The notes: generated from the letters alone by a model not told the origin. Shown: positions 3,908 through 27,875, counted from the first letter of the stretch. The stretch: DNA of 32,000 bases from Candidatus Saccharimonadota bacterium (GCF_002214165.1 NZ_CP019964.1:210001-242000); one strand, 5' to 3'. Numbers and translations: made by a program.

Positions 3908-3917
3908 TGGTGATATA

Positions 3918-5759
3918 TTGCCAAGTAAAAATAATGCCTCTGTAAATGAAAAATGCCCAGTTTACCTGGACGGCAAATTAATCTCTTATGTAAAGGACGG
4001 TAGCGAATTTGTAAAAGAGATAAGAAAGAACAGGAGAATGGGATTGATATCAAACGAAGTTAATGTCTACTACAATGCCAAGATCAATGAAGTACATGTA
4101 AATGCAGATAACGGAAGAGTAAGGAAGCCCTACATAATCGTGAGTAACGGCAAAAGCCTTTACACTCCGGAGCTCAAGGAAAAGCTTAAAAAAGGAGAGA
4201 TAGATTTCAATTACCTAGTCCATCACGGAGTGATAGAGTACTTGGACGCAGAGGAAGAAGAGAACATATACTGTGCCCTTTCAGAAAAAGACATAACGGA
4301 AGATACCACGCATCTTGAAATAGAGCCTTCGATAATGTTCGGAGTTACAGTAAGCAGCAGCGTTTTCCCTGAATTCAACAATGTAGGAAGGCACCCAATA
4401 GCATGGAACTTCATGAAGCAGTCGCAGGGTTTTTACGCAACGAACTTCAATTACCGGTACGATGCAAGAGCATTTCTGATGTATTACCCTCAAGAGCCTC
4501 TGGTAACGAGTTCCGCATACCGCTCATTGAACCTGAGCAAGCACCCTGCAGGCCAGAATTTCGTGGTGGCATTGAGCACCTATTATGGTTATAACATAAA
4601 AGACGCATTAGTCCTAAACAAGGCTTCTGTGAACAGAGGTTTGGGAAGAAGTGTATTCTTCAGGACTTACTCTGACGAAGAGATAAGATATCCTGGAGGC
4701 CAGCAGGACAAGTTTGTAATACCTCCAGCAACATCGGAAGGTTATAGGGGAGAGCATGTCTATGCAAAGCTTGGAGAAGATGGGATAGTAGAGCCTGAAG
4801 TTGATGTCGAGGAAGGAGACGTTATAATAGGAAAGGTATCCCCTCCAAGATTCCTGGAGGAGCAGACGAGCTATGGTGTCAGCGAAGAAAGAGTGAGAGA
4901 CAATTCAGCCGAACTGAGGTCTGGTGAGTCCGGAGTGGTAGACAGCGTATTGCTGAGCGAGAGTCCAGGAGCCACAAAAATAGTTAAAGTGAGGATAAGG
5001 GGCATAAAGACGCCCGAGGCTGGAGACAAGTTTGCAAGCAGGCAGTCGCAGAAAGGGGTAACAGCATTGCTGGTACCTCAGGAGGATATGCCATTTACAA
5101 AAGACGGGATAATACCTGATCTTCTTCTTAATCCAAACAGCTTGCCTAATAGAATGACATACGGGCACATGCTTGAGATGCTTGCCGGAAAGGCAGGATC
5201 ATTAGAGGGTAAGAAGTTTGATGGAACCGCCTTTAGTGCAAATGGGTCTGACTTGGTGAAGGAATACGGCCGTATATTGCAGTCCCATGGGTTTGAGGAG
5301 TACGGGGACGAAGAGTTTTACGATGGAAGGACAGGAAAGAAGTTCGATGCGAAGCTGTTCACTGGAGTGGTATACTTCCAGAGGCTATGGCATATGGTAA
5401 GCCTGAAGATACAGGTAAGGAGCAGAGGGCCTGTCCAGATATTGACAAGGCAGCCTACGGAGGGCAAGCCTCGTAAGGGAGGGCTGAAGTTCGGAGAGAT
5501 GGAACGTGAAGCCATAATAGGCTATGGCGCCAGCTTGGTCCTAAAAGAGAGGATGCTGGACCAAAGCGACAAGGCCCCTGTATGGATATGCAAGAGCTGC
5601 GGAGATCTTGGTTATTTTGATTACATAAAGAATACTGCGGTATGCCCAACATGCGGCAGCAGCGACCTTGAAGAAGTTGAGATAAGCTATGCATTCAAGC
5701 TGCTCATAGATGAGCTCAAGTCGATGCACATACTGCCAAGGATAAAATTGAAAGGTTGA
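3918..5759 (+). CDS. rpoB1: DNA-directed RNA polymerase subunit B' (C-terminal half of split subunit B, Rpo2C)
   Basis: It has the GDKFASRQSQKGV motif (Rpb2 GDKFASRHGQKG), GGLKFGEMERE, and a C-terminal zinc ribbon CKSCG...CPTCG. The start is TTG. Confidence 0.93.
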   Translation: MPSKNNASVNEKCPVYLDGKLISYVKDGSEFVKEIRKNRRMGLISNEVNVYYNAKINEVHVNADNGRVRKPYIIVSNGKSLYTPELKEKLKKGEIDFNYLVHHGVIEYLDAEEEENIYCALSEKDITEDTTHLEIEPSIMFGVTVSSSVFPEFNNVGRHPIAWNFMKQSQGFYATNFNYRYDARAFLMYYPQEPLVTSSAYRSLNLSKHPAGQNFVVALSTYYGYNIKDALVLNKASVNRGLGRSVFFRTYSDEEIRYPGGQQDKFVIPPATSEGYRGEHVYAKLGEDGIVEPEVDVEEGDVIIGKVSPPRFLEEQTSYGVSEERVRDNSAELRSGESGVVDSVLLSESPGATKIVKVRIRGIKTPEAGDKFASRQSQKGVTALLVPQEDMPFTKDGIIPDLLLNPNSLPNRMTYGHMLEMLAGKAGSLEGKKFDGTAFSANGSDLVKEYGRILQSHGFEEYGDEEFYDGRTGKKFDAKLFTGVVYFQRLWHMVSLKIQVRSRGPVQILTRQPTEGKPRKGGLKFGEMEREAIIGYGASLVLKERMLDQSDKAPVWICKSCGDLGYFDYIKNTAVCPTCGSSDLEEVEISYAFKLLIDELKSMHILPRIKLKG

Positions 5760-5768
5760 GGGGTTGTC

Positions 5769-8291
5769 ATGCAAGCTGAAATTATAGATAGTATAAAATT
5801 TACAACTTTAAGTCCAGACACGATAAAGAAGATGAGCGTAGCAAAGCTTATAGTGGCCGATACATACAATGAAGACGGCTATCCAATAGACGGAGGGCTT
5901 ATGGACCAGAGGCTTGGAGTCATAGACCCTGGGCTCAAGTGCAAGACCTGTGGAGGAAGAGCAAAGAGCTGCATGGGCCATTTCGGGCACATAGAGCTGG
6001 TAAGGCCGGTGATACACCCGGAGTTCGCGAGATTCATATACATGCTTCTGCAGTCAACATGTGAGAAGTGCAATAGGGTAATGTTGAGCAAGGAGCTTGC
6101 AGATGACGTAAGGTCCGCATTGAAGGAGATAAACCTGAACGCAGACGAGCAGAAGGAAGAGCTTCTCTTCAATGACATAGTCAAAAAGCTGAAGACGCTT
6201 AAGAAATGCCCTTACTGCGGATCGGACCAGCATAAGCGCAAGTTTGAAAGGCCTACATTCTTCTACCTTAACGGTGAAACACTTAAGCCGGATACGATAA
6301 GGGATTGGCTTGCAAATATACCTGACGAGGATTTGGTAAGCATAGGGATAGACCCAAATGCAACAAGGCCCGAATGGCTCATACTTAGCGTGCTTCTAGT
6401 GCCTCCAGTAAATGTGAGGCCTTCAATAACCCTGGAGTCGGGAGAGAGGAGCGAAGACGACCTGACGCACAAGCTCGTAGAGATTATGCGTATAAACGAG
6501 AGGCTTTCGCAGGATATAGATGCTGGAGCCCCACAGATAATAATAGACGACCTTTGGGAGCTTCTTCAATATCACGTTACAACATATTTCAACAACGAAA
6601 CGCCTGGAGTTCCGGTAGCAAGGCACAGGAGCACAAAGCCTCTGAAGACATTGGCGCAGAGGCTTAAGGGCAAGGAAGGAAGGTTGAGGTATAACTTAAG
6701 TGGAAAGAGGGTCAACTTTTCAGCAAGAAGCGTCATATCTTCGGATGCAAGCCTTACAATAAACCAAGTGGGAGTGCCGATGAAGATAGCGTCTGTGATG
6801 ACAATACCACTTTACGTAACTAAGTGGAATATTGAGGCGGCAAAGAAGTTTATCCTGAATCCAGATTATCCAAAAGCGCTTAATGTGATATCAAAAGGTG
6901 GCATAAGGAAGAGGGTCACGGAGACAAACCGCGAAGACCTTGTCGCAAGCTTAGAGCCTGGAGATGTAGTGGAGAGGCAATTGATGGACAACGACTTAGT
7001 CCTGTTCAACAGGCAGCCTACGCTGCACAGGCTATCGATAATGGCCCATAGGGTAAAGGTGATGCCCGGAAAGACGTTCAGGATACAGGTTTCTGCAGCA
7101 TATCCTTATAATGCAGACTATGATGGGGACGAGATGAATCTTCACGTGCCTCAGACTCTAGAAGCGCAGGCGGAAGCGATGTACATGATGCAGCCCAAGA
7201 ACCTGATGCTCAGTGCAAGGCACGGCCAGCCGGTCTTCTATGCAGAAGAAGATGAGATAGCAGGAGCGTACTTCTTAACAAAAGGCGACACCTATTACAC
7301 AAAGGATGAAGCAGCCTTGATGCTCGCCTATATAGGCATATTTGATCTGCCAGACGAATCAGAGAAAGGGCTTTACAATGGAAAGGATATAATCTCAATG
7401 CTGTTCCCAAAGGACTTCAATTTCACGGGAAACAACATGAAGGGGCAGGTTATAATAAAGAATGGGAAGCTTATAGAGGGAATACTTGATGCCAGGATGA
7501 TAGGGGAAAAGGGATCAACCCTTATATCAAAGCTATTCATAGACTACGGGCCCGATTTCATAGAGAGGTTCATACTGAATCTGACAAAGATCTCATTGAG
7601 GGCAATTTACAAGAGAGGCTTGACGGTAAGCGTCAAGGACTACATTGTGAGCAACGAAATGATAAGTGAGAGAGATAGAATAATTAAGGAAGTGGAGGAT
7701 AAAGCGAACAAGATAACAGAAGAGTACAACGACAGGACCCTTGAATCATTGCCGGGATACACAAGGAAGCAGACCATGACCACGCTTCTGTTTGCACAGC
7801 TCAGTGAAGCAAGAGACATAGCAGGGAAGTACCTCAATAGGACAATGAACACGACCAACAATGCCTTCCTTCTTGCATCAATAGGAGCAAGAGGTTCAAT
7901 AATGAACGTTATACAGATGAGCATGCTTCTTGGACAGCAGTCGGTAAGGGGAAAGAGGCCGTCTAGAGGTTATTCAGGCAGGGTATTGCCTTACTTCCGC
8001 AAGAACGACAAGGACCCCCGCGCGAAAGGTTTCGTCACGTCATGTTTCTTTGAGGGGCTTACGCCTACGGACTTCTTCGAGCACGCAATGGGAGCAAGAG
8101 ATAGTGCAGCGACAAAGTCGCTGGTAACGGCAGTCAGCGGTTACATGTACAGGAGGCTGGTAAACGCGATGATGGACTTCTACATAAGCGAGGACAAAAG
8201 TGTCAGGGGATCAGGGATGGAGCTTATCCAGCCACTATATGGAGGAGATGGAATAGACCCTATGTACGTCAACGTGGAGCCCAGCAAATGA
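5769..8291 (+). CDS. rpoA1: DNA-directed RNA polymerase subunit A' (Rpo1N)
   Basis: The N-terminal zinc motif [18 protein letters not shown] and the catalytic [10 protein letters not shown] motif are present. Confidence 0.95.
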
Positions 8292-8301
8292 GGTACTTAA
8301 T

Positions 8302-9360
8302 ATGGCAACAAAGAAAGAAGATGAAACATATATAAAGGATGTCAAAGTGCAGTATGGCGAACCTGTGGGTGTGGTGGCAGCACAGTCAATGGGAGAGCCT
8401 TCAACACAGATGGTATTGAGGACGTTCCACAGTGCAGGTATAGCAACAACCATATCATCCGGTTTGCCCAGGGTAATAGAGCTTGTAGATGCAAGGAAGA
8501 AGCAGGCCTCCCCTACAATGACAGTGCAACTTGAGCCCAAGATAAGGAAGGACTATGATGCAGTAAAGAAGCTTGCCAAAAAGTTCCAGGAAATACGCAT
8601 AAGGGACGTTATCTTAAAGCATATCGAGAATCTTAAGGAGTCCAAGCTTGAGCTGGTGCTAAGCAAATCCAAGATGGAGGACAACCTGCTTACCGAGGAG
8701 ATGGTTATAGAGAAGCTGAATAAAAAGTTCAGCGGAATCAGCATAGAAAAGAAGAGCAACCACCTGATAATAAGCCAGAAGAAGCCGAAGGACATACATT
8801 CTACGCGCATAGCGTTCGTACATATAATGGATTTCCAGCTATCCGGAATAAAAGGCATAAACAAGGCAGTGATAATGCAGAATGATGACGAATCATTCTA
8901 TATATTCACGAGCGGCAGCAATATATCCGAAGCGATGCAGCTGGACGGGGTTGTACCTGAAAAAATATACAGCACAGATCCATTTGATGTGCTTAAATCC
9001 TATGGGGTTGAGGCAGCAAGGAATGCGATTGCATACGAGCTTAGGAATACGATGCAGCATGAAGGGGTAAAGGTTGATTTCAGGCATATGGGGCTTATAG
9101 CTGATTCAATGACCCTGACCGGAACCATAATAGGAGTAGGCAGGCACGGGCTGGCAGGGACAAAGGCATCGGTCTTCGCGAGGGCCGCATACGAGGAAAC
9201 GGTGAAGCACTTCGTAAACGCAAGCATATTCGGCGAATCAGACCTTCTGAAAGGTGTATCGGAGAACGTCCTGATAGGAAAGCAGATACATGTAGGTACA
9301 GGTCTTGTGAAGCTTGCGATAAAGAAGGATGATTTAAAGAAGATAAAAGCGGAGGAATAA
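8302..9360 (+). CDS. rpoA2: DNA-directed RNA polymerase subunit A'' (Rpo1C)
   Basis: It has the [16 protein letters not shown] trigger-loop region block and directly follows A'. Confidence 0.93.
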
Positions 9361-9420
9361 TAGGTAAATATTTATTCTTTGTTTTTTAATTAAGTAAGTT
9401 TTAAAGATTAAAGTGAGCAA

Positions 9421-9669
9421 ATGATGAATGCAAACGTAAATTTTACACAGGAAAGGCCATTTGACTTGTTGAACAAATCGATAGGAAAGCAGGTGCTGGT
9501 AAGGCTGAAGAACAATCTCAGCATAAGAGGAAAGATAACATCGTTTGACGCACATATGAATATAGTGATGGACGGTGCAGAAGAACTTGACTCAAGCGGA
9601 GAGCTTAAGGCCAAATTGGGCATAATACTGCTTAGGGGAGGGAATATAATATTTGTCTCTCCTACTTGA
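9421..9669 (+). CDS. Sm-like (LSm / SmAP) RNA-binding protein
   Basis: An Sm1-like block VLVRLKNNLSIRGKITSFDAHMNIVMDGAEE and an Sm2-like block ILLRGGNIIFVSP are present in an 82-aa protein. Confidence 0.85.
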   Translation: MMNANVNFTQERPFDLLNKSIGKQVLVRLKNNLSIRGKITSFDAHMNIVMDGAEELDSSGELKAKLGIILLRGGNIIFVSPT

Positions 9670-13094: not shown

Positions 13095-13802
13095 GTGAAG
13101 CCTATGAAAAAAACGGTCCCTACTGCTGAAAAAAAAATAGTCAAAAAATCCAAACTCTTTGAGATACCTATATACAGCCAATCAGAGGATTTTACAAGTT
13201 CTGCTGCAAGCGTGATGATGGTGCTCAAGTATCTGAACAAGGATTACAAGATGCTTAAGGAAGACGAGTTCTCTATATGGAATGAGACAGTCTATGGAAG
13301 CGTATGGCATGGATCCAGGTACGGTATAGCTTACGCATTGGCGAAGAGAGGTGCCAAGCCATATATAGTGAGCAGCAATATAAAGGACTTAGGATACGAA
13401 AGGAAGATAGCCGTATACGAAGGCATAAACTTGGATGCATTGCAATCAGCATTTGACGAGATCAAAACTAAAATTAAGGATTATGAGGTAAAGGAAGTAA
13501 AGGGAAATGTGACCATAAACACTATAAAAAGGTACATGAGCGACAACCAAATACCTATAGTCCTGGTAAATGCCAACGTTCTCAATTCAACAGTATCTCC
13601 TAATGGCTCTCCGCAATGGGTAGTGATTAAAGGTTATGATGAAGATACATTCTACATAAATGACTCATATTCTGGAATTACCTTGATAATGGAGCCAGAG
13701 ATGCTGACAAAATCTCTTGGTTATGAAGGAGAATACTACATGATATTGGTAAAAGCCAAGAAAATTAGCAGCAAGCCCACAAAAGCATCCAAATCAAAAT
13801 GA
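13095..13802 (+). CDS. Peptidase C39-like domain protein (papain-like fold), possibly non-catalytic
   Basis: IPIYSQSEDFTSSAASVMMVLKYLN resembles the Q....CG.a.laMvl block of C39-like domains. PQWVVIKGYDEDTFYINDS resembles the H.vvv.Gyd....i.DP block. The start is GTG 13095 or ATG 13104. Confidence 0.5.
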   Translation: MKPMKKTVPTAEKKIVKKSKLFEIPIYSQSEDFTSSAASVMMVLKYLNKDYKMLKEDEFSIWNETVYGSVWHGSRYGIAYALAKRGAKPYIVSSNIKDLGYERKIAVYEGINLDALQSAFDEIKTKIKDYEVKEVKGNVTINTIKRYMSDNQIPIVLVNANVLNSTVSPNGSPQWVVIKGYDEDTFYINDSYSGITLIMEPEMLTKSLGYEGEYYMILVKAKKISSKPTKASKSK

Positions 13803-14212: not shown

Positions 14213-17200
14213 ATGGAATCTGATACTTCTGAGGATAATATAGAGGATGAAGACAATACTCAGAGTGGAAATGACTATATATCAAAGCTGCAGCAGAATA
14301 GCCAAGAGGCTGAGCAGAACAATAGCCCAGACCAGTCTGACGAACCCTCCTCTAGTAATGACAGTTCCTCTGATAATGATAAGGCCGATGATTCCAGCCC
14401 CCAACCAACTACGGATAATGATGGCAATGAAGCAATAACTGAACCTCCAAAGAAAAAGAAGCCAAAAAACATAAGCAATTTGAATATAGGATTTAAGGGA
14501 AGCAATCAAGAAGCACAGGAGGGAGAAGAAGCCAATCAAGGCAATCGGAAGCCAATACCTGAAATACCAAATCTCGATGCACCTAGCAAGCCCCCCGAAA
14601 ATAATAATGAAGATAACAGCGGAATTAAATGGGATACAAGCGGTTATAACCCACATGCATACGTATCAGGATCAAATGCAAATAACCGGTCAAGTAACAC
14701 CAATTACAATCAGCCGATTAGTTCTGAAGGCAAATCAATAGCAAATAATCAACCAAAAAGAAAGTTCGGGTTTCCAAACAATAAAAAATTGGCTACGGTA
14801 AAGCCAAAAGTATTATTAACAACAGAACAAGCACAGAAGCGCAATAAGAAATTCCTTCTAGTAATGGTAATTATCTTAATAGCAATAATAGCTGTAGTAC
14901 TTGCTTCAACATACCTGCACCACAAAAAGGTAATTGTCCCGCCTCCTCCACCGACGCCAAAATTCCACTACATAAATAGCTGCCAAGATGTAATTAACCC
15001 CGGAGTATACTATCTGGGAGTCAATCTTACCTATTCAGGATCCAGTGGAACCTGTATAACCATAGATACAAATAATGTTGCATTTATATGTAAGGACAAA
15101 GGAATAAGTGGCAAAGGGCCTTACATTGTGACTAGCACATCCACGAATGGAGTTGTCATAAACAAGAAAAGCAATGTATCAATAAGCGGATGCAGCATAA
15201 AAGACTTCTCCTATGGGGTTTCCATCCAAAATTCTTCAGGTGTATCTATAACATTTGATAATATATCCCATAACACAATATCTAATGTTAGGATATCAGG
15301 AGGGGAAAACAATAGTGTTATAAATAACACTTTGTCGGGAGCAGGATTGGATTACGGTTCGCTTTATTTAACAGGCAATACAACAGACAATTTGGTTGAA
15401 TTCAATAAGATAACTAGCAGTGCAAATTATAGCATATATGTAAATTCATCTGGAAATAAATTCTACGAAAACTACATAAACAATACTCCTTACGGGTTTT
15501 ACTGTAATGTAGATTATGGACTTATAAGAAGCAATCTTGCAAAGTCAAATATATGCAATACAAATTTCGGATGTGATTTTGTAAAATGCAGCTTGTTAAA
15601 CATACCGGATAATGTATCAAAGATAACCCTGACACCTTCAATAACAAGTTGCGGTTCAATAACCTCCCCTGGCGATTATTATTTAAAAAATAATATTTCT
15701 GCAGGCTACGCATATTCCAATACAAGCAGTTCTTTGGTCAAAAACATCTCATTGTATTATCCAAAATGCATAACAATTAAATCCCCAAACGTAAATTTGG
15801 ACTGCAATAATTTCACCATTTACAACTCAAGCGAAGGAATATATTATTTAGGGCTGAGCAATGTTTCAATAGAAAACTGCAATTTCAGAAATGTAAACAA
15901 ATCAATAAATGTTTCAATTTCGAATGACTCCAAAATAAGTAACATAAGGATAAACGACAGCAGCATATATGGAGTAGGGGTAGTATCATCGACAAAAGTT
16001 GATTTCTCAAACCTGTCAATATCTAACAGCACAAAAGGGATTAACATATTTGCAGATTCGGAGTACAATTCATTTAATAAAATAGCAGTATCAAATAATT
16101 TCTACGGTATATACCTTAACATATCAAACCTTAATGATTTCAGCAACTTCACAATAAATAAAAATACTTTTGGTGTATTCATCAACGATTCCCTTTACAA
16201 CCAATTCAACAAGGGCACAATATTAAACAGCACTAAGATTGATTTATATGCACAGCCTGGCAGTATAGCGAATAAAACTACAAACCTATTTTATTCAACG
16301 GTCTGTGGTTTGAGCGATACAAAGTGGGGGGTATGCACTTACTATGTATTACCTAATCTCAAATTCTACCCTGTAGATAGCTGCTTGAACGTGACTAGAT
16401 CCGGAACTTATGCACTTGATAAGAATCTTGTAACCTCAAGTTCGGACTGCATTGACATAAAAGTTCCAGATGTAAACCTCTCGTGTGGCGGATATTCTAT
16501 TAGCCAACTGACTCCAGGGTATGGAAGTGCAATATATGACAAGGGAGAGAAAAATGTAACAATAAGTGGATGTGCAGTTTATACTTTCAACAAAGCCTTT
16601 GATTTTGAGGAAACTTCAAACATAAATATCTATAACTCTACGGCATCAGATCAAACACCAATATACTTTTCAGATGTTAATCATTCATATATAATAAACA
16701 ATACATTCGATATATCCGGGAATACCGGTCTGATATTACGCAATGTATCAAAGAGCGTAATTTATACCAATAAAATAACCGGAAACTCAAAAGGCAGCGG
16801 GTTGGTACTTAATAACTCATACCTTAATCTGATATTTAACAATTCAATCTATTCAAACAAGATAGGGTTTGCCTTATACAATAATTCTGTAAAGAATACA
16901 ATATTCAATAATACTGTACAGATAAGTTCTAATTACGACTATTACTGCTCCCCAAATGCCAGCCCTATATACTCCGAGTATAAGGGATTCAATTACGGAC
17001 AGAAGGAAAATGACTGCTACTGGCTTTCTGCATTAAGCCCTACAAGCCCAAGTGCAGAGTGCTATATAGTATCAAATCCAACAACCATAAACCTGGGTGC
17101 AGATTATCTTTATAAATATGGGACAGTTTGCATGAAGATTCGTTCAAACGATGTAACATTCAACTGTGACAATCATACAGTGTCGGCTTTAAATGGAGGC

Positions 17201-17410
17201 ACATTCATAAACGTGTCAAATTCTAAAAACTTCAAATTGGAGAACTGCTATATGCAAGGATTTACAGCCCCTATACAGGTTTATAATTCAAGCGGAGAAT
17301 TGACAAACAATCAGATATTAGTAAAAAGCGCCTATAAATCGGATGCAATAGAAATCTCAAATTCGCCTAATATGTCCAGCCAAAATAACTTGGTTTACAA
17401 TTATTCATAA
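14213..17410 (+). CDS. Membrane-anchored surface protein: acidic low-complexity N-terminal region, one TM helix, poly-Pro linker, then repeated right-handed beta-helix (PbH1/NosD-like) modules rich in N-x-S/T sequons
   Basis: A 1065-aa ORF. The TM helix FLLVMVIILIAIIAVVLASTYL lies at 14852-14917, followed by PPPPPTP. Repeated I/V-x-N-N-x-I/F type beta-helix turns and four Cys-containing module heads follow. Confidence 0.75.
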   Translation: MESDTSEDNIEDEDNTQSGNDYISKLQQNSQEAEQNNSPDQSDEPSSSNDSSSDNDKADDSSPQPTTDNDGNEAITEPPKKKKPKNISNLNIGFKGSNQEAQEGEEANQGNRKPIPEIPNLDAPSKPPENNNEDNSGIKWDTSGYNPHAYVSGSNANNRSSNTNYNQPISSEGKSIANNQPKRKFGFPNNKKLATVKPKVLLTTEQAQKRNKKFLLVMVIILIAIIAVVLASTYLHHKKVIVPPPPPTPKFHYINSCQDVINPGVYYLGVNLTYSGSSGTCITIDTNNVAFICKDKGISGKGPYIVTSTSTNGVVINKKSNVSISGCSIKDFSYGVSIQNSSGVSITFDNISHNTISNVRISGGENNSVINNTLSGAGLDYGSLYLTGNTTDNLVEFNKITSSANYSIYVNSSGNKFYENYINNTPYGFYCNVDYGLIRSNLAKSNICNTNFGCDFVKCSLLNIPDNVSKITLTPSITSCGSITSPGDYYLKNNISAGYAYSNTSSSLVKNISLYYPKCITIKSPNVNLDCNNFTIYNSSEGIYYLGLSNVSIENCNFRNVNKSINVSISNDSKISNIRINDSSIYGVGVVSSTKVDFSNLSISNSTKGINIFADSEYNSFNKIAVSNNFYGIYLNISNLNDFSNFTINKNTFGVFINDSLYNQFNKGTILNSTKIDLYAQPGSIANKTTNLFYSTVCGLSDTKWGVCTYYVLPNLKFYPVDSCLNVTRSGTYALDKNLVTSSSDCIDIKVPDVNLSCGGYSISQLTPGYGSAIYDKGEKNVTISGCAVYTFNKAFDFEETSNINIYNSTASDQTPIYFSDVNHSYIINNTFDISGNTGLILRNVSKSVIYTNKITGNSKGSGLVLNNSYLNLIFNNSIYSNKIGFALYNNSVKNTIFNNTVQISSNYDYYCSPNASPIYSEYKGFNYGQKENDCYWLSALSPTSPSAECYIVSNPTTINLGADYLYKYGTVCMKIRSNDVTFNCDNHTVSALNGGTFINVSNSKNFKLENCYMQGFTAPIQVYNSSGELTNNQILVKSAYKSDAIEISNSPNMSSQNNLVYNYS

Positions 17411-19338: not shown

Positions 19339-19659
19339 CTACCTTCCACTATCTATCGTTTTGGAGAACTTCTGTACGCTTCTTATTATATTTTTAACCT
19401 TGGGGTTTAGCTTATAACCCAAACCATAACCGTTGGCAGTCCTAATATGCGTAGGCTGTATAACATTTAAGTCCAATGAAAGCTCTCTTAATGTTATTAT
19501 TAGCGTCTTCCTTGTAAACTTCTTTTCAAGAACAGAATAAAGCTCCTTAGTAGTCCTCGGTGATTTTTGCAACAAAAGCTCCATAACCGCATAATTAGGC
19601 CTACTCAAAACCTTTCTCAATGCCCAAATATTATCCTGATTCTTATCAATTTTTGCCAT
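19339..19659 (-). CDS. Small winged-helix-turn-helix DNA-binding protein (ArsR/MarR-like pattern), divergent from the pilus operon
   Basis: A 106-aa protein. The segment AVMELLLQKSPRTTKELYSVLEKKFTRKTLIITLRELS looks like H2-turn-H3 of a wHTH, followed by a Gly-containing wing (TANGYGLGYKL). A TTTTAAAT TATA-like box lies about 30 nt upstream of its ATG. Confidence 0.6.
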   Translation of the reverse strand: MAKIDKNQDNIWALRKVLSRPNYAVMELLLQKSPRTTKELYSVLEKKFTRKTLIITLRELSLDLNVIQPTHIRTANGYGLGYKLNPKVKNIIRSVQKFSKTIDSGR

Positions 19660-19840: not shown

Positions 19841-21322
19841 ATGAGCTGGCCACTAATGTCAAAACTAAAGAGGTCATTAAACGAACAAGGATCTTATGAA
19901 ACCAATCTCAGCCCAATCCAACTAAACTTTTCAGTCTCAAATCTGCCTTTTGACAAGCAAGTAGAGAAACTTGGCAGATTTAAGGTTATAGGAAAGAAAA
20001 AGAACATTTACCTATATTTGTTGAATCCTGAGAACTATAAATTGGATGATTATAAAGCATCACAACTTAAACGATATGCTGTTGAGTACCTAGTAAATTC
20101 AGATATAAATTTAGAGTATTCGTCGGAATCGATTGAATACATATCAAGGTTCCTAATGGAAAGATATTCATCAGATCCTTTCCTATCTTATATAATAGCA
20201 CACGATACAGTAGGATATGGGCCAATAAGCATACTTCTTGAAAATTCAAAAGATATAGAAGAGATATTAGTAAACGGCCCTAAATCCAATATCTCTATTT
20301 ACCACGCAAAATATGGATACTGTGAAACAAACCTAAAATTTAATGGTGAAGATGAATTTAGGTTCACTATGAACAAGATACTTTCAGAAACCCTAAATGA
20401 GCTTAATGAGGATTCACCTGTGGTAGATGCACAGCTTAAAGATGGATCAAGGATACATGTTCAAATAAAGCCTTACTCAGAGAATGGCGCAACAGCATCT
20501 ATAAGATTAAATGGAAGCAAATCAATCGGGATAAGAAAGCTTCTCGAATCTGGAACAATAGTCAAGGAGGATATTGTATATTTATGGATGGGACTTGAAG
20601 TTGGCTGCAATATAATAATCTCAGGATCACCATCATCTGGAAAGACAACCCTATTAACTGCAATAAGTGCACTAATGCCAAGATATGAAAGGATAATTAC
20701 AATAGAGGAGGATGTCAATGAATTGAAATTCTATAGCAATTTTATAAATGCGGTAAATTTAAAAAGCAGATCAAAACAGGGACTTACATTAAAGGACCAG
20801 GTGATCAATTCTTTGCATTTAAGGCCCGACCGCCTAATCATAGGGGAAATAAGAGGTCCTGAAGCCCACGATATCTTTTTTGGTGCAAACACCGGAATCC
20901 CCTTTATAACAACAATGCATAGCGAGGCAGATGAAAATTCTCTTCTTGCAAGACTAGAATCAAGGCCAATGTCTGTAGAAAGCCATCTAATACAATCATT
21001 AGATATTGCGATTTTTATGGAACACAGATATGATAACACAAGAAAGCTTAGCAGATTGGTGGAGTACAATTGGTTATCAAAGGCAGAAACTATCGGCGAT
21101 AAGGAATTGCCTATGGTAAAATTAAATGCCATGGTTAATAATACTATTTTTGACATGCATTTATTGAATGAGTCAAAGGTCATAAAGAGATATGCAACAT
21201 TGCATGGAATGAGCAATGATGAAGCAGTAAATGAGTTTATGCGCAGATCTAAATTTTTAGAAGCGATTCCAAGAGACACGGAATTTAGCAGTTATATAGA
21301 AAGATATTGGGAGATAAAATGA
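19841..21322 (+). CDS. Type IV filament assembly ATPase (GspE/VirB11/TadA/FlaI superfamily)
   Basis: It has Walker A GSPSSGKTT, the Asp/Walker B region RPDRLIIGEIRG, the His box ITTMHS, and an N-terminal domain of the usual size. Confidence 0.9.
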   Translation: MSWPLMSKLKRSLNEQGSYETNLSPIQLNFSVSNLPFDKQVEKLGRFKVIGKKKNIYLYLLNPENYKLDDYKASQLKRYAVEYLVNSDINLEYSSESIEYISRFLMERYSSDPFLSYIIAHDTVGYGPISILLENSKDIEEILVNGPKSNISIYHAKYGYCETNLKFNGEDEFRFTMNKILSETLNELNEDSPVVDAQLKDGSRIHVQIKPYSENGATASIRLNGSKSIGIRKLLESGTIVKEDIVYLWMGLEVGCNIIISGSPSSGKTTLLTAISALMPRYERIITIEEDVNELKFYSNFINAVNLKSRSKQGLTLKDQVINSLHLRPDRLIIGEIRGPEAHDIFFGANTGIPFITTMHSEADENSLLARLESRPMSVESHLIQSLDIAIFMEHRYDNTRKLSRLVEYNWLSKAETIGDKELPMVKLNAMVNNTIFDMHLLNESKVIKRYATLHGMSNDEAVNEFMRRSKFLEAIPRDTEFSSYIERYWEIK

Positions 21323-22032
21323 AAGCTCTAAAATACCTGTATTTACAATATCCCTATATAAGCCTATTAACTATAGGAGGATTAATATTCTATTGGCTTT
21401 TTAACATATATTCAATCCTATTGATATTGCCATTTGGGATGACAATTCTATTTATAAAGTTTATAAATAAAAATTACCAGGATATGGAGAATTCCCACAA
21501 AATCCGAAGCAACTTTGTACAGAGCATAAATATGCTTTATTATGAAACCAAATTGAAACACCTTAGCTTGATAAATGGTATAAAAGAGACATCAATAAGT
21601 TCAAACAACAAAGAGGTTTGCTCATATTTTAAAAGTATATCTAGAAGGGTTACTTATGGAGAAAAGTTAATAGATGCATTAGATGATAAATGCCCCAATG
21701 AAATATACGACATGGTTAGCAGCATAAAAGGAAATATATCTAGTGGGATGGATTTTGGGAAAAGCTCCTATTCTGTATACAAATCCGAAATTAATAAAGA
21801 AAATGATCTTTCAGAATACAAAGCATACTCAGCCCAAAAATATTCCACACTTGGAATATTAGCATCTATCGTAATGCCCTCTTTCATAATGTTTGGGGTA
21901 ATCGGATACTCAATCATAAATTCATTCCTTAAAATATTTTGGGCATTCAGCATTGTGCTAACATGCATTATACCACCAGTTTATCTTATTATAAAATTGA
22001 AAATGAAGAGCGTAGATTTCAATGAAGTATAA
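21319..22032 (+). CDS. Half-size platform membrane protein (T2SS-F / TadB-like)
   Basis: It has N-terminal TM helices, a soluble helical middle (....GEKLIDALDD.....) and C-terminal TM helices. ATG 21319 forms an ATGA overlap with the ATPase stop; the ORF-track alternative start is TTG 21307. Confidence 0.7.
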   Translation: MKALKYLYLQYPYISLLTIGGLIFYWLFNIYSILLILPFGMTILFIKFINKNYQDMENSHKIRSNFVQSINMLYYETKLKHLSLINGIKETSISSNNKEVCSYFKSISRRVTYGEKLIDALDDKCPNEIYDMVSSIKGNISSGMDFGKSSYSVYKSEINKENDLSEYKAYSAQKYSTLGILASIVMPSFIMFGVIGYSIINSFLKIFWAFSIVLTCIIPPVYLIIKLKMKSVDFNEV

Positions 22033-22771
22033 ATTTTACACAATGCTTTCTGCATTAAACTCAATTTCGATTGTACTTAATTATAGATATCTGTATATTT
22101 CAGCACCTATATTATTAGCAAATATCTTAGTACTTGCAAAGCCTCGCTTAGGGAATAGAAATTTAAAACAGCAATCTGAAGAATTCTTAATAAACCTTGC
22201 ATCACAGCAAAATTCCAATGACAAGCAAATACTAAATAAAGTATTAAAGTCAATAAATAAAGAATTTAAGTTTGGGAAAGATATAACAAGGGCATTAAGA
22301 TATTATCATTTTTCAGGATCCTTGGAATATCTGAGCAATTTAAAATATAACGAGTCCAAACTTTTGGAAAGGATAAAAGAGATTATAGTTTACTCAATAC
22401 ATTCTGGTACTGATATATACAAGCCAATTCTAACGCTAAAATCCGAGTACTATAAAAGTGATGTAATAAGCAGGAGATCAAGAGCATTAGTCAAGAGTTC
22501 CGAAGCAATTATGATAATGGGTAACTTAGTCTTTATACCAATGTTTGCAGGCATATCCGCCAATATACTGAAATTTACTTCAACTATTTCCTCCGGAGCA
22601 ATTTTGGAATTCTTGACAATAATAATATTTTATCTCCTTATGGTGAATTGGATAAATGCGGAGTATTCTAATAAAAGAGATTACCCTGTACTATATTTAT
22701 CTATTTTTTATACTGCTGTGGCATCATTCGCCTTGTTCTCAACTTACAACGTTGCATCAAGGATGTTATAG
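22022..22771 (+). CDS. Second half-size platform membrane protein (T2SS-F / TadC-like)
   Basis: It has the same TM-soluble-TM layout as the preceding gene and overlaps it by 11 nt. Confidence 0.7.
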   Translation: MKYKFYTMLSALNSISIVLNYRYLYISAPILLANILVLAKPRLGNRNLKQQSEEFLINLASQQNSNDKQILNKVLKSINKEFKFGKDITRALRYYHFSGSLEYLSNLKYNESKLLERIKEIIVYSIHSGTDIYKPILTLKSEYYKSDVISRRSRALVKSSEAIMIMGNLVFIPMFAGISANILKFTSTISSGAILEFLTIIIFYLLMVNWINAEYSNKRDYPVLYLSIFYTAVASFALFSTYNVASRML

Positions 22772-22778
22772 TGATAAA

Positions 22779-23018
22779 ATGAAACAATACCTAAATAAAA
22801 TAAGAAAGAGATTTGAAATGGCCGGATCAAAGAAGGGACAGGGGTCTATAGAGTACCTGTTAATGCTGTCAGCGGTTAGCATAATAATAGTTATAGCGCT
22901 AGCAATGATAGTTCAACTTAAAGGTGATGCTATAGGAATTTTCTATAATTCATCGACCAACCAAAGCTTGGCTAATGAAATAGGCAGGGAGATAGCAAAT
23001 ATAAGTTCAAAGAGGTAA
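22779..23018 (+). CDS. Short type IV pilin with class III signal peptide (KKG-QGSIEYLL), candidate major pilin
   Basis: A basic leader ends in KKG, followed by Q-G-S-I-E (QxSxE) and a 20-residue hydrophobic helix. The mature product would be about 59 aa with three N-x-S/T sequons. The ORF-track start 22656 overlaps the upstream gene and is unlikely. ATG 22818 is also possible. Confidence 0.8.
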   Translation: MKQYLNKIRKRFEMAGSKKGQGSIEYLLMLSAVSIIIVIALAMIVQLKGDAIGIFYNSSTNQSLANEIGREIANISSKR

Positions 23019-23023
23019 GTTTA

Positions 23024-23398
23024 TTGGATAAGCACGCACAGATATCATTGGAATTCCTTATATACCTTGCAATATCCGCAATCTCTCTCTTGTTTATTCT
23101 ATCAATTTATATAGAAGGAACATCTGAGTTAAACTCAAGCGTAAATAACGCTTACCTAGGTTCATTTGTATCAGCAATAAATTCCAATATGAACTATTAT
23201 GAGAGCAACGTTCAGTTATATGTGCCAAAATCAATATGTAACTGCACATCTTCCAACGAATATCTGTCCTGTGCTTATGAAAAATTTAAGCTATATGGAA
23301 ATTTATCTATAACCAAAGAGATATGCTTGAACAGCGGATCAATTGAAACTATGGATCTCTACTATTCAAATGGCAAATATATGCTTTATAGTGATTGA
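23024..23398 (+). CDS. Prepilin-like protein (minor pilin/pseudopilin candidate)
   Basis: The N-terminus is MDKHA-QISLEFLIYLAISAISLLFIL, that is QxSxE plus a hydrophobic helix. It has a TTG start 5 nt after the pilin stop. Confidence 0.7.
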   Translation: MDKHAQISLEFLIYLAISAISLLFILSIYIEGTSELNSSVNNAYLGSFVSAINSNMNYYESNVQLYVPKSICNCTSSNEYLSCAYEKFKLYGNLSITKEICLNSGSIETMDLYYSNGKYMLYSD

Positions 23399-23599
23399 AT
23401 GAAAATGCAGGTTTCATTTGAGATAGTAATATCAATGGCAATAGGGATCCTATTCATCTCTTCGATAATGTACATGTACATGCAGGTAAATGCCAGGATT
23501 TCCGATTTTAAAAATTCCTTGAATATTAACTATTTGCAATCAGTTTTCAATTCTAGCTCTTGGTCTGATAAGTACCTAGTAATCAAAATGAGTAATTAA
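23399..23599 (+). CDS. Small prepilin-like protein (66 aa)
   Basis: The N-terminus is MKM-QVSFEIVISMAIGILFISSIM (QxSxE). The start codon abuts the previous stop (TGAATG). Confidence 0.65.
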   Translation: MKMQVSFEIVISMAIGILFISSIMYMYMQVNARISDFKNSLNINYLQSVFNSSSWSDKYLVIKMSN

Positions 23600-23645
23600 T
23601 AAAATAGGTTATGGGCCAGAAAGACAAAATTGGTAAAGGTGCATT

Positions 23646-23987
23646 ATGATGAATGGATTTATGATAGAGTCTGATATAATATTTGCCGTAATGATTTCAT
23701 CCGTGGCATTCATTTTATTTTATAGTTACACATTAGACTCTAACAATACACTTTATAATGAAGCGATTAAGTCATCAGATACACTTTACGTCAATATGGA
23801 AATACAGCATTTTGTTCATTTAGGGGATTCAGGAAATAGTGCTTTTAGCAATCTAGCCGTTCCATTCAATGCGTCAATTAAGCCATTTAACCCTTTTGAT
23901 TGCTCCGCAAATTGTAGTGCTAATTCAAATTCAATAAACAGATTAGTATACTTGAAAGGAAGCATATACGAGATATCGGTGAACTGA
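23646..23987 (+). CDS. Prepilin-like protein with a G-F type N-terminus
   Basis: The N-terminus is MMNG-FMIESDIIFAVMISSVAFILF. Gly then Phe, an early Glu and a hydrophobic helix recall bacterial G/F(M)xxxE prepilins. Confidence 0.55.
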   Translation: MMNGFMIESDIIFAVMISSVAFILFYSYTLDSNNTLYNEAIKSSDTLYVNMEIQHFVHLGDSGNSAFSNLAVPFNASIKPFNPFDCSANCSANSNSINRLVYLKGSIYEISVN

Positions 23988-25276
23988 TGAAAATACAGAC
24001 AACTATTGAATTTATCATAATATTGGCAGCAATATCATCATTAATTGTGGTTGCCCTTTCAGTATATAACGGAATCTCAAGCGATGCAAAAGAAACTTTC
24101 AATGCTGTATTAAGCTCTGCAGTAAATCAAAGTAATAGTGCACTTTATAACAACCAAAGTCAGACATTTGAAATATCCTATTACCTAAATAGTACCCTGC
24201 CATATAATATGTCCAGTTTAGGGTATATTGAAATATTATCCCAAGCCCCAATCAAAATTTTAAACGTGAGCTATACTACCAATGACGGATATATAGACCT
24301 GGATAAAGGTTTGAAAAATACAACTGTAAATGGATTTTCAATAGACGAGTTTTACTATATACCAAATAGAACAGGTTTATCAAAGATACAATTTAACTTC
24401 AAAATCAAGTATAAAAATAATACTGTTCATAAGAACATTTCTATTAACACCAGTGTTTACAACATATTGAAGTACTCTAAATCTGAATATACGGTTTCAA
24501 TAAATATAAATAATTCATCAGTAACTTATCCAATCGAAAACAAAAACAAAATATATAAATTCAATATAAAAACTCATTGCAGTGCAATGAATAACGGTGT
24601 TGAACTTCCAATAAATGAACAATGTGGGAATGCCAGTTACGACCTATTCATATTTTCCAATTACTGCTTTTATGATCAGAATGCAGAATCAAGAGTTATA
24701 TGCATTTATAAGGATTATAATAATCTGTCTTTGCTTAGCCTAAGCAATAATGAATCAAAACTATCATATAATGGTAAGTTCAAATTCAACGCTCCAAATA
24801 TAAGTATATACTCAAATTTCTCTAGTTCTAATTATAGAAGCTTAAACTTTGATTCATCCGGGTATCCAAGTGGTTATTACGGCAAATTGGAACTGGCAGG
24901 AGCACACGCAAGTAGTGATAACTATAGTAATCAACTATTATATCGCAATGGGAGTTTATGGAGAATAAACTCTTCTTCGGCCGAAGATTTTTATGTTCAG
25001 AAGGCAGAACTTAATTCGTTGCTTGCATTTTATAATGGTACTGGAGTAGATGGAAAGCAGTGGGAATATATATCAGAGAATATAAACGCATATAACGAAA
25101 GTATCCCAAAGAGTTCACAACCATTTGAGCAGGATAATTGCGGTTTAAGCTACCATCTAAACTACAAATGCAAGAACATACCGATAAAGTTCAGCAATAT
25201 AACAGCTGAAATAAAAAATTATAACATAGAGAACGAAACCGTAATTTACGGAAATTATACAATTAACTTAAGGTGA
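23987..25276 (+). CDS. Large (429 aa) prepilin-like protein, Asn-rich and sequon-dense; candidate tip or adhesin subunit
   Basis: The N-terminus is MKI-QTTIEFIIILAAISSLIVVAL (QxTxE). There is a 1-nt overlap (TGATG) with the previous gene. The rest is a long Asn/Ser/Tyr-rich ectodomain with several Cys. Confidence 0.7.
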   Translation: MKIQTTIEFIIILAAISSLIVVALSVYNGISSDAKETFNAVLSSAVNQSNSALYNNQSQTFEISYYLNSTLPYNMSSLGYIEILSQAPIKILNVSYTTNDGYIDLDKGLKNTTVNGFSIDEFYYIPNRTGLSKIQFNFKIKYKNNTVHKNISINTSVYNILKYSKSEYTVSININNSSVTYPIENKNKIYKFNIKTHCSAMNNGVELPINEQCGNASYDLFIFSNYCFYDQNAESRVICIYKDYNNLSLLSLSNNESKLSYNGKFKFNAPNISIYSNFSSSNYRSLNFDSSGYPSGYYGKLELAGAHASSDNYSNQLLYRNGSLWRINSSSAEDFYVQKAELNSLLAFYNGTGVDGKQWEYISENINAYNESIPKSSQPFEQDNCGLSYHLNYKCKNIPIKFSNITAEIKNYNIENETVIYGNYTINLR

Positions 25277-25681
25277 TTGATCTTGGTATATCTAAAATCA
25301 CAAATAGCAACGCTAGAAGCTGTGATCTCTGTTATCATACTGTCTTCATCAATATTAACCTTGTCATATTTAGGATATGCACAATCGACTCCAGAAGAAA
25401 TTCAATCAAAAATAAATTTTTACAACTTGGTGTATGACATGTCCAATATAATTTACAATTATAATAGCAATTGTATAGCAACTTGGAATTATAGTTGCAT
25501 GATTAATACCACGCGTGAGTTATCACGAGTATACCATATGCAATACCTAAAAATATCCTATAATAAAAACTCAACATCCTATGGGAATAAGGAAATTTGC
25601 CATGAACTAAATTATTACTGCTTATACTATAAAGGAAATGAATCATCGATATATGGAGATATATGTTTTCTGGGGTGTTAA
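25277..25681 (+). CDS. Prepilin-like or membrane-anchored protein (134 aa), degenerate motif
   Basis: The N-terminus is ...YLKS-QIATLEAVISVIILSSSILTL, with Gln then Glu displaced by one position. It has a TTG start directly after the previous stop. Confidence 0.5.
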   Translation: MILVYLKSQIATLEAVISVIILSSSILTLSYLGYAQSTPEEIQSKINFYNLVYDMSNIIYNYNSNCIATWNYSCMINTTRELSRVYHMQYLKISYNKNSTSYGNKEICHELNYYCLYYKGNESSIYGDICFLGC

Positions 25682-25955
25682 AATAGCATTTTACGGTATC
25701 CTAATAGCAATTACTATACTTATAGCAATAGGCACTATAGTTCAATATATTAACTATATCGATTCGACCGAATCCATTAACTCCTATTTAAACTCCTATA
25801 TATGCCATTTAAATTTGGGCATACAAGAGAGATTACTCAGCAAAAGCAATATAAGTACAATCTATATCGACAACCTTAAGAGCATAGGGTTAATAGATAG
25901 GTTTAGCGTCAAGGAATACCAAAATAGACAATTTGTAGTTGTCGAATGCTCTTAA
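25653..25955 (+). CDS. Small N-terminally anchored membrane protein, last gene of the operon
   Basis: The N-terminus is MEIYVFWGVKIAFYGILIAITILIAIGTIV, with no clear QxSxE. It overlaps the preceding gene by 29 nt, or 44 nt if ATG 25638 is used. Confidence 0.4.
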   Translation: MEIYVFWGVKIAFYGILIAITILIAIGTIVQYINYIDSTESINSYLNSYICHLNLGIQERLLSKSNISTIYIDNLKSIGLIDRFSVKEYQNRQFVVVECS

Positions 25956-26107
25956 TAAGCATAAATAGGGATAAGGGCAGGACATAGCCCTGTACTAAAT
26001 GCTTATAAGGCTAGGACCAATAAATAAAATTCAAGAAATTCACAAAAACTTATAAAGTTAATAGGACAATAATAGCATTGTTGGCAGTACAATACTTATT
26101 ATGATAA

Positions 26108-26179
26108 GCCCTGGTGGTGTAAAGGCTAGCACGAAGGACTGTGGATCCTTAAGTTCGGGTTCGATTCCCGGCCAAGGCC
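26108..26179 (+). tRNA. tRNA-His (anticodon GUG), no intron
   Basis: The acceptor GCCCTGG/CCAAGGC has one C-A mismatch. The D-arm is GTGT-AAAGGCTA-GCAC and the anticodon arm is AAGGA-CTGTGGA-TCCTT. The variable loop is 4 nt, the T-arm is TCGGG-TTCGATT-CCCGG and the discriminator is C. Confidence 0.8.
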
Positions 26180-26183
26180 TTTT

Positions 26184-27875
26184 TCAGAAGAAATGTACTG
26201 CAAACCCCCTAGTCATCTGTTTTTCGAATTTATGGAATGAACTGGTATTCTTTTTTATATCCTTTACCATACTCTTGTAAAGTATCTTTTCCTGTGCGTC
26301 AAGTTTTCCTTCCTTTACTATAGTTTGCTTTTTGCCATCTACTATCTGGGTTTCTGTTTTGCTTATTACTTCCTTCTTTACCATAAGGTACCATTCGTCT
26401 AGAGAGCTGCCAACATTTTCATCTACCTTACCTTTTATGACTTTAACCAAATCCCCTGTCGACAGCTTGGTCTTTACTCGGGTGTTATATTCTTTAAGCA
26501 GTGGAATCATTATTGCTTTATCGCATATCTTCTCTATATCTGCAGGAGAGTATCCTATTGTGGCTCTAGAAAGCCTGCCCAAATGAAGCTTTTTATGAGG
26601 TTTATTAGAAGTATAAAATTCAAACAAATGCTTTCTCTCTTTATAATTTGGAGGTGGTATGTAAAGCGCATCACCAAATCTACCCGATCTCTTTAATGCT
26701 GGATCTATATCCCAGGGCTGGTTTGTAGCACCAATTACATATATGCCTTCAGGGTTTTTTTCTACACCGTTCATTTCGACCAAAAATTGATTTACTGCCA
26801 GTCTCAATGCGGATCCTTCACCTCCACTATCTCCGCCCCCTCTTTTAACACCTAAAGCATCAAGTTCATCAAAAAATATTATACAGGGTGTATTCTTTCT
26901 AGCTTGTTCAAATATAGCATGCAAGTTCTTTTCTGTATTGCCCGTATACATATCAACTATCTGATTTGTCCTAGCTATTATCACATTAGCTCCAGCCTCT
27001 CCTGCCACCGCATTTACTGTATATGTCTTACCTACCCCAGGAGGCCCATAAAGAAGAAGGCCCACCCCAAGCTTTTTGCCATAATGCTTAAACAATTCAG
27101 GATTTTTTATTGCGAGTACCACATTATCATTCAGAAAACGCTTTAGCTTTTCCTCTCCTACAACGTCTTTGAATGTCATATTCGATTTATAAAAAGGAAC
27201 CTTCTTTATCTGGCCTTCTTCTATCTCCTCTTTATTATCATCCTCTGTGCTGTTATCCCCAGCTCCTGGCCATAAATTGCCTCCCTTACTTAACCTGTCT
27301 AGTTCACTACCGATATCATCTAGATTCTCTGTGCTGCTGCTAGATTGATTAGGATAAGAGTTGCCCAATCCTGAAGAAGATCCAATTTTTGATGACGCTT
27401 CACTATGTATAAGTTTATCAATATTCTTTATTCTATCCTTTGCTTCAGAATAATCCGGATTTTTAGCTAATGATCTTTCATACCACATCCTAGCTTCAGG
27501 GTAATCCTTCTGGGATTCTAAAATGTCTCCTATAAGCAAAGGTGCATCATAACTGGATGGTTGCAGCAATATAACTTTTTCCAAATCCTCCCTGGCTTCA
27601 TTATACTTCTTTTGAATCCTCTCTGTAAGGGCTTTATTGAAATAGGCATCAGCATATTTTGGGTCTATTGAAATAGCCTGGTTGTATTCACTTATTGCCT
27701 TTTCAAATTCATCATCCTCAAAAAATCCGTTGCCTTTTTTCCAGTGATCTTTTGCCTCTGGATTTACTGCCTTTTCATTATTATCATTTGTGTTTTTGGC
27801 TAGGTTATCTGTTTCTAACATATCCGAATCATCAGCATTGCCTTCATCGTCAGGCAAGTTATTTTCAATAGCCAT
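26184..27875 (-). CDS. TPR-repeat AAA+ ATPase (classical AAA clade, single ATPase module)
   Basis: It has an acidic N-terminus and about three TPR repeats (e.g. AISEYNQAISIDPKYADAYFNKA). A Ser-rich linker follows, then Walker A LLLYGPPGVGKTY, Walker B IIFFDELDA and SRH ATNQPWDIDPALKRSGRFG, then a C-terminal extension of about 80 aa. Confidence 0.85.
   Translation of the reverse strand: MAIENNLPDDEGNADDSDMLETDNLAKNTNDNNEKAVNPEAKDHWKKGNGFFEDDEFEKAISEYNQAISIDPKYADAYFNKALTERIQKKYNEAREDLEKVILLQPSSYDAPLLIGDILESQKDYPEARMWYERSLAKNPDYSEAKDRIKNIDKLIHSEASSKIGSSSGLGNSYPNQSSSSTENLDDIGSELDRLSKGGNLWPGAGDNSTEDDNKEEIEEGQIKKVPFYKSNMTFKDVVGEEKLKRFLNDNVVLAIKNPELFKHYGKKLGVGLLLYGPPGVGKTYTVNAVAGEAGANVIIARTNQIVDMYTGNTEKNLHAIFEQARKNTPCIIFFDELDALGVKRGGGDSGGEGSALRLAVNQFLVEMNGVEKNPEGIYVIGATNQPWDIDPALKRSGRFGDALYIPPPNYKERKHLFEFYTSNKPHKKLHLGRLSRATIGYSPADIEKICDKAIMIPLLKEYNTRVKTKLSTGDLVKVIKGKVDENVGSSLDEWYLMVKKEVISKTETQIVDGKKQTIVKEGKLDAQEKILYKSMVKDIKKNTSSFHKFEKQMTRGFAVHFF

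Follow-up and report, generated by a model that had tools for sequence, protein, structure and literature searches.

Ten consecutive genes on the + strand, at positions 19841-25955 of a 32,000-nucleotide stretch of DNA (GCF_002214165.1, NZ_CP019964.1:210001-242000; this whole stretch is called the window here), are the type IV pilus locus Mia14_0252-0260 of Candidatus Mancarchaeum acidiphilum Mia14. Very probably these genes form an operon that assembles a type IV pilus not used for motility; it comprises Mia14_0252-0260 and one unannotated gene. The genes are numbered g1 to g10 below. Lengths are in amino acids (aa), and a bar within a protein sequence marks the predicted cleavage site behind the leader.

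19841-21322, + strand: g1, assembly ATPase (Mia14_0252), 493 aa, Pfam T2SSE, exact match ASI13583.1
21319-22032, + strand: g2, predicted half-size platform protein with one TadC/T2SSF-type domain (Mia14_0253), 237 aa
22022-22771, + strand: g3, second predicted half-size platform protein (Mia14_0254), 249 aa
22779-23018, + strand: g4, predicted major pilin (Mia14_0255), probable precursor of 79 aa with a mature part of 59 aa, Class_IIIsignal
23024-23398, + strand: g5, pilin-like (Mia14_0256), 124 aa, TTG start, MDKHA|QISLEF
23399-23599, + strand: g6, small pilin-like protein (Mia14_0257), 66 aa, MKM|QVSFE
23646-23987, + strand: g7, pilin-like (Mia14_0258), 113 aa, MMNG|FMIESD
23987-25276, + strand: g8, large pilin-like surface glycoprotein and candidate tip adhesin (Mia14_0259), 429 aa, MKI|QTTIEF
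25277-25681, + strand: g9, pilin-like, 134 aa, TTG start, ...LKS|QIATLE, without public annotation
25653-25955, + strand: g10, small membrane-anchored protein (Mia14_0260), 100 aa (105 aa in GenBank, from 25638)

The locus was identified by exact protein look-ups, in which g1-g8 and g10 lead to Mia14_0252-0260, either through names that bear the tags or through consecutive accession numbers. The g3 protein is 100% identical to a Candidatus Mancarchaeum acidiphilum protein. Mia14 is an ARMAN-2-related member of the Micrarchaeota, within the DPANN archaea, and is co-cultured with Cuniculiplasma divulgatum. An earlier note on this DNA, made from the sequence alone, had supposed a DPANN host, and the exact matches bear this out. 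The surroundings in the window are likewise archaeal, with a split rpoB plus rpoA, an ATP-dependent DNA ligase, a TPR-AAA ATPase and a tRNA-His.

The pilus annotation of this cluster is already known, having been published in 2017 for the same genome. Golyshina et al. (PMC5498576) describe Mia14 as having two type IV pili systems. One of these is MIA14_0252-0260, placed in euryarchaeal clade 2. The second, MIA14_0170-0177, is of the Methanococci/Methanothermobacteria/Thermococci type and has a CpaF-type ATPase. By their account the sole prepilin peptidase of the genome is the FlaK-like MIA14_0570, which lies outside the cluster; no EppA is reported, and archaellum genes are reported absent. 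The opinion of the earlier note that the gene repertoire matches no described system is therefore overtaken by this publication.

The published table (Supplementary Table 2 of PMC5498576) covers the same DNA but differs in several details. It labels g2 as TadC, but not g3, and has no entry for g9. Its tags are offset, with 0253 appearing twice. It also lists 0260 (g10) as a class III pilin, which the N-terminus seen here does not support. What is added here beyond the 2017 annotation is the uncovering of g9, the reading of g3 as a probable second platform half and a probable 79-aa precursor for g4. A further addition is the conservation of the complete ten-gene block, as one module, among divergent relatives.

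All ten open reading frames (ORFs) are present and tightly packed, as the earlier note had described. The junctions include ATGA at 21319-21322, an 11-nt overlap at 22022-22032, TGAATG at 23396-23401, TGATG at 23985-23989 and TGATTG at 25274-25279, plus an intergenic gap of 46 nt at 23600-23645. Every junction quoted in the note was found, but its general spacing of 0-5 nt does not hold between g3 and g4. The start of g4 is likely 22779, because the second Met (22818) is an Ile in L001, the corresponding locus of a related Micrarchaeota metagenome-assembled genome (HSP2.bin36). The start at 22779 is conserved, and leaves 7 nt between g3 and g4. For g10 the gene stands, but not the start at 25638: the relatives share the ATG at 25653, which gives a 29-nt overlap with g9, and the RefSeq start agrees with L001.

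Shine-Dalgarno-like GGTG/GAGG sequences precede most starts by 5-12 nt, those of the TTG starts of g5 and g9 included. A scan for sigma-70 promoters and intrinsic terminators found no + strand terminator inside the cluster, although these bacterial models are uninformative for an archaeon. Judging by the spacing, the ten genes may well be co-transcribed and translationally coupled.

The ATPase g1 matches Pfam T2SSE with 84.7 bits (cut-off 24.9; 6.5e-24), in agreement with the GspE/TadA-family assignment made earlier, and its sequence shows the Walker A motif GSPSSGKT. Its solved relatives are, best first, the A. fulgidus GspE 2OAP (4e-44, 154 bits), CpaF (2e-36) and FlaI (1.5e-33). The best NCBIfam match is the FlaI model at 1.8e-50, but with 172 bits against a cut-off of 550; for BasE this is 69 against 1000. 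Scores against CpaF/TadA are below those against archaeal GspE and FlaI.

The platform proteins g2 and g3 each stay under the Pfam T2SSF cut-off when searched alone, and g3 has no direct Pfam match. The link comes through relatives. The g2 homologue in L008, another of the related loci, matches T2SSF. Exhaustive searching with HMMER brought up 69 g3 relatives, almost all of 200-275 aa, and T2SSF is matched by 10 of 58. One relative, P0025, passes the cut-off (25.8 vs 25.2 bits) with its residues 72-184, corresponding roughly to g3 66-179. An AlphaFold model of g3, made from the family alignment, is all-helical with a pLDDT (the model's own confidence measure) of 91.8.

The two proteins also resemble each other. 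Aligning a g2 profile to the g3 family with hhalign gave a probability of 83% (E 8.8e-6, 156 columns). This signal emerged only once the homologue from a further related locus, L007, had joined the g2 alignment; direct BLASTP between g2 and g3, and hhalign with a shallow g2 alignment, gave none. Among PDB sequences, neither g2 and g3 themselves nor their profiles had a relevant match. The hhalign match and the T2SSF links together indicate that g2 and g3 are distant paralogues with one T2SSF-type domain each. By these sequence comparisons the pair are the two half-size platform proteins that the earlier note had seen.

Turning to the pilins, g4 matches Pfam Class_IIIsignal with 27.1 bits (cut-off 23.7), which upholds the earlier call of a pilin with a mature part of 59 aa. 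Homologues of g4 match Class_IIIsignal too, and Flp_Fap is not among the Pfam matches listed for g4. The predicted cleavage is MKQYLNKIRKRFEMAGSKKG|QGSIEY, where the site KKG|QGSIEY fits the Flp pattern G|xxxxEY. The mature part carries three glycosylation sequons and has no globular domain. Counted from its conserved start, the g4 precursor probably has 79 aa, of which 20 form the leader. The g4 homologues of five of the six related loci have leaders of 20-24 aa, and the one in L009 is longer. Across seven loci (Mia14 plus the six related ones, which is the set used for all N-terminus comparisons here) the mature N-terminus is nearly invariant. Archaeal class III signal peptides are usually shorter than this leader, which is more reminiscent of Flp prepilins.

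All six frames of the window were scanned for a pilin motif, defined as a short leader, [KRHN][GASMIL]|Q, a Glu 4-5 residues on and an uncharged hydrophobic stretch of 18 residues. Only g4, g5, g6, g8 and g9 match, and there were no matches in 20 shuffles. Because the motif is restricted to these genes and absent from the shuffles, the pilin-like N-termini are not due to chance. g7 carries a G|F variant (NG|FMIES).

The N-termini of g5 to g9 are also kept by the relatives, so that the earlier count of five further leader-bearing, pilin-like genes and an anchor-only last gene is sustained. In g5 the N-terminus |Q.S.EF is conserved in seven loci (HA|QISLEF in Mia14), and the L007 homologue matches Class_IIIsignal at E 0.0033. 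For g6, [MA]|Q..FE and the hydrophobic helix are kept in most loci; L006 has KA|QLFSLD. The leader of g7 is short and, in six of the seven loci, has [KNR]G at its end; a hydrophobic helix comes next, with an acidic residue early on. g10 has a single N-terminal hydrophobic helix, without the leader/Q/E motif.

The largest of the set, g8, has 25 N-x-S/T sequons, compared with 10.2 +/- 2.7 in shuffles. It has 6 Cys, of which five are invariant in a four-locus alignment, and homologues of 421-453 aa occupy the same position in L006, L007, L009 and L010.

A look-up of the exact g9 sequence in the protein collection found nothing, and the tags pass from 0259 to 0260 at this point. The gene is uncalled in the GenBank/RefSeq Mia14 records and in the gene calls of JGI, Logan and NCBI. 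L001 has an intact copy (74% identity), and homologues of 125-132 aa occur in L006, L007, L009 and L010; in L007, L009 and L010 the gene is called. Elsewhere in the cassette, a g6 homologue of about 66 aa (MKLQILYEMV..., L007 ~9400-9597) was also missed by the gene caller; in this cassette, small pilin genes seem to escape gene calling frequently.

The group of relatives is taken as Micrarchaeota, L001 being the only locus that is named as such. L001 holds all ten genes in the same order with the same flanking genes. The best conserved gene of the cluster is g4, with 94% identity, while g5-g10 evolve faster, at 62-74%; g7 is intact, with 62% amino-acid identity. The ratio of nonsynonymous to synonymous change (dN/dS) against L001 is 0.02-0.22 for nine of the ten genes, g9 included: g1 0.064, g4 0.021, g5 0.088, g6 0.146, g8 0.109, g9 0.109 and g10 0.215. 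The ORFs are thus under purifying selection, with g7 not computable since its synonymous rate (dS) is saturated.

The other related loci extend this, in the kind of synteny comparison that the earlier note had proposed. The full-length L007, L010 and L009 have the same ten-gene order and near-identical gene sizes, and L008 and L006, which are cut by contig ends, match the order as far as they extend. The cassette is conserved down to a g3 identity of about 21-31%, and over contigs with a G+C content (GC) of 20-54%. Throughout, positions g4-g9 keep their class III-like N-termini. L007 and L010 additionally share an upstream beta-helix protein, ligase and small divergent ORF.

Outside this lineage, hardly any homologues of the non-ATPase genes could be detected. 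Word-indexed searches with g8, g3 and g2 returned near-identical sequences only. A scan of NCBIfam had no match for g2-g9, and for g10 one at chance level. The profile searches that the earlier note had proposed succeed directly for T2SSE and Class_IIIsignal, and for T2SSF by way of relatives and a weak g2 match.

A working model of the pilus can be put together from these parts. A hexameric g1 would dock on a membrane platform of g2 and g3. A peptidase encoded elsewhere, MIA14_0570 according to PMC5498576, would trim the short, positively charged leaders, in line with the earlier expectation that this enzyme is encoded elsewhere in the genome. The mature 59-aa g4, an N-terminal helix with a short glycosylated tail much like Flp or EpdE, would then polymerise into a thin filament that g5-g9 may prime or cap as minor pilins. 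The heavily N-glycosylated, 429-aa g8 would be a likely tip adhesin, and g10 a membrane-anchored accessory protein. We infer cleavage, filament formation and the division into major and minor roles from the gene set.

Several observations weigh against this reading. The T2SSF match of g2 itself is weak (E 0.064, although spanning model positions 14-122 of 125). A Foldseek search of the g3 model against PDB gave nothing significant (best E 0.77); the top probabilities, also non-significant, went to two structures with a GspF-type fold, 0.41 for 2WHN (the PilC N-terminal domain) and 0.35 for 6BS9 (SpoIIIAB). The single-sequence AlphaFold model of g8 has a pLDDT of 31 and is unusable, so its adhesin role is argued from size, position and sequons only. 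The residue before the cleavage site is Met in g6 (MKM|Q, 23399-23407) and Ile in g8 (MKI|Q, 23987-23995), both unusual for substrates of A24 peptidases. L001 keeps both, L007 also has the Ile in g8, and its uncalled g6 reads MKL|Q. In most relatives this residue is Ala, Gly or Ser, with Leu in some; the Met and Ile would therefore be peculiarities of the Mia14 lineage. Finally, the searchable literature yielded no expression, cleavage, filament or imaging data for the locus.

Four other explanations have to be weighed. The earlier note had remarked on the AT-richness of the operon, which could be the mark of a recently acquired foreign island. Operon GC is indeed 0.322; the genome as a whole has 0.394, and the RNA polymerase genes have 0.457. 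However, GC at third codon positions (GC3) is 0.30-0.36 for the operon genes measured and 0.32-0.36 for the ligase, AAA and beta-helix genes, so that the operon equals the flanking ligase and AAA genes, and AT-richness is no operon-specific trait. It is the split rpoB/rpoA (2447-9360, + strand) that are the GC outliers, with a GC3 of 0.50-0.55 (rpoB 3918-5759, rpoA 5769-8291). The cassette is moreover surrounded by the same flanking genes in L001, L007 and L010, and its GC tracks that of each host contig over the whole range. The AT-richness is not a foreign-DNA signal; a recent horizontal acquisition is very unlikely, and was rejected on GC3 and conserved synteny. Even less credible is an archaellum or bindosome-type locus. 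That the FlaI model is the best NCBIfam match of g1 would suit it, but the scores fall far below the FlaI and BasE cut-offs. Pfam scans of the cluster found no archaellin, no FlaF/G/H/X or FlaCDE match and no substrate-binding domains. Among all window ORFs there was no Pfam match to an A24 peptidase or an archaellum accessory family, just as the earlier note had reported, and the archaellum genes are reported absent from the genome (PMC5498576). This candidate was rejected on gene content.

More serious is the question whether the cluster is a true member of the EppA-dependent Epd family (clade 1/System 1; Methanococcus, Thermococcus). System 1 is marked by two separate platform genes and by a short major pilin that lacks a globular domain, features which g2, g3 and g4 share, and pilins here have a QxSxE N-terminus, a motif typical of EppA substrates. 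Against this, g1 scores higher with archaeal GspE and the FlaI model than with CpaF/TadA, and a Pfam scan of the window did not find FleN/MinD, a DUF2341 adhesin or EppA. PMC5498576 puts this locus in clade 2 and MIA14_0170-0177 in clade 1, in a genome with a FlaK-like peptidase only, and two tadC-like genes are also found in many clade 2 loci (Makarova et al. 2016). Membership is thus quite unlikely; the "Epd-like" label of the earlier note suits the architecture, but as a statement of clade it lacks support. The machinery could also be a short pseudopilus for exchanging DNA or other macromolecules with the host, akin to competence or secretion systems, instead of a long adhesive pilus. Golyshina et al. 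speculate on DNA exchange through type IV pili systems (PMC5498576). Of the six pilin-like genes, five are of the type of minor pilins, which also occurs in type II secretion and competence pseudopili. Against this reading, the cluster has no DNA-binding, translocase or nuclease gene by Pfam, the strongly conserved, Flp-like g4 suits a polymerising major subunit, and we know of no tested archaeal precedent for an exchange pseudopilus. This reading is judged rather improbable.

An assembly operon for a non-motility pilus remains the preferred reading. Its filament may serve in attachment to surfaces or to the Cuniculiplasma host. Cultivated DPANN archaea require physical contact with their host, and we know of no account of how Micrarchaeota attach. 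It is possible, although clearly speculative, that this cassette builds the pili-like connections between ARMAN and their wall-less Thermoplasmatales hosts: g4 would form the filament, the minor pilins a five-member cap, and the fast-evolving, hyperglycosylated g8 would set host specificity. If true, this would be a host-attachment organelle specific to DPANN, with non-ATPase parts that have no detectable homologues elsewhere. As one of two candidate pilus systems in an organism that is available in co-culture, the cluster is a reasonable experimental target.

Some neighbouring genes deserve mention, starting with the one directly upstream.

19339-19659, - strand: divergent 106-aa ORF, possible regulator of the operon by inferred association, 98% identity to L001

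This identity holds despite a dS of ~1.6, for a dN/dS of 0.005. An ORF of 109-110 aa sits in the same position, also on the - strand, in L007 and L010. Neither Pfam nor the PDB yielded a match for the 106-aa ORF, which may regulate the pilus operon.

Two genes upstream of the cluster lies a NosD/beta-helix protein (14213-17410, + strand) of 1065 aa, which carries 49 N-glycosylation sequons and begins with a very acidic region of low complexity. Possibly it is a surface protein tied to the pilus system. About 6 kb upstream of the cluster there is a gene for a DUF3335/C39-like cysteine peptidase (13095-13802, + strand); Makarova et al. 2016 link surface transglutaminase-like peptidases to some archaeal pilus loci. 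Downstream, a tRNA-His (GTG) gene (26108-26179, + strand) separates the operon from the convergent TPR-AAA gene, and the ORF that overlaps it (26101-26280) is spurious.

Among known systems, the Epd pilus of Methanococcus maripaludis (clade 1/System 1) shares the multi-gene operon, the two platform genes, the short major pilin without a globular domain and at least five minor pilins. Its role is in adhesion, which may also hold here. It differs in that the window has no EppA and the ATPase of this cluster is assigned to another clade. In addition, all parts but the peptidase are contiguous here, whereas in M. maripaludis the Epd major pilin and ATPase are encoded outside the main locus. The short major pilins of System 1 are typically stand-alone genes.

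Bacterial Tad/Flp systems have two platform proteins with a single T2SSF domain each (TadB/TadC), a small Flp-type pilin that has both a long leader and the G|xxxxEY site (G|QGSIEY in g4), and pseudopilins downstream, all of which have counterparts in this cluster. Unlike those systems, it has no match to the secretin (RcpA), TadZ, TadD, TadG or TadV in Pfam and NCBIfam, and g1 is closer to archaeal GspE than to CpaF.

This leaves euryarchaeal clade 2/System 2, with its PilB4-type variant in H. volcanii, which shares a FlaI/GspE-like ATPase, often two tadC-like genes and a private pilin set. According to Makarova et al. 2016, many loci of clade 2 carry a pair of tadC-like genes, pilin sets of their own and a FlaFind-positive minor pilin of 250-550 aa. 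By size and N-terminus g8 fits this minor pilin (arCOG02911), with no homologue detected outside the lineage. The cluster differs from clade 2 in lacking MinD/FleN or an S-layer-like gene, and in a 59-aa, Flp-like major pilin where the PilA type of clade 2 has a globular domain. The assignment of the ATPase to clade 2 (arCOG01817) is that of PMC5498576, and the best solved relative of g1, the A. fulgidus GspE, is consistent with it.

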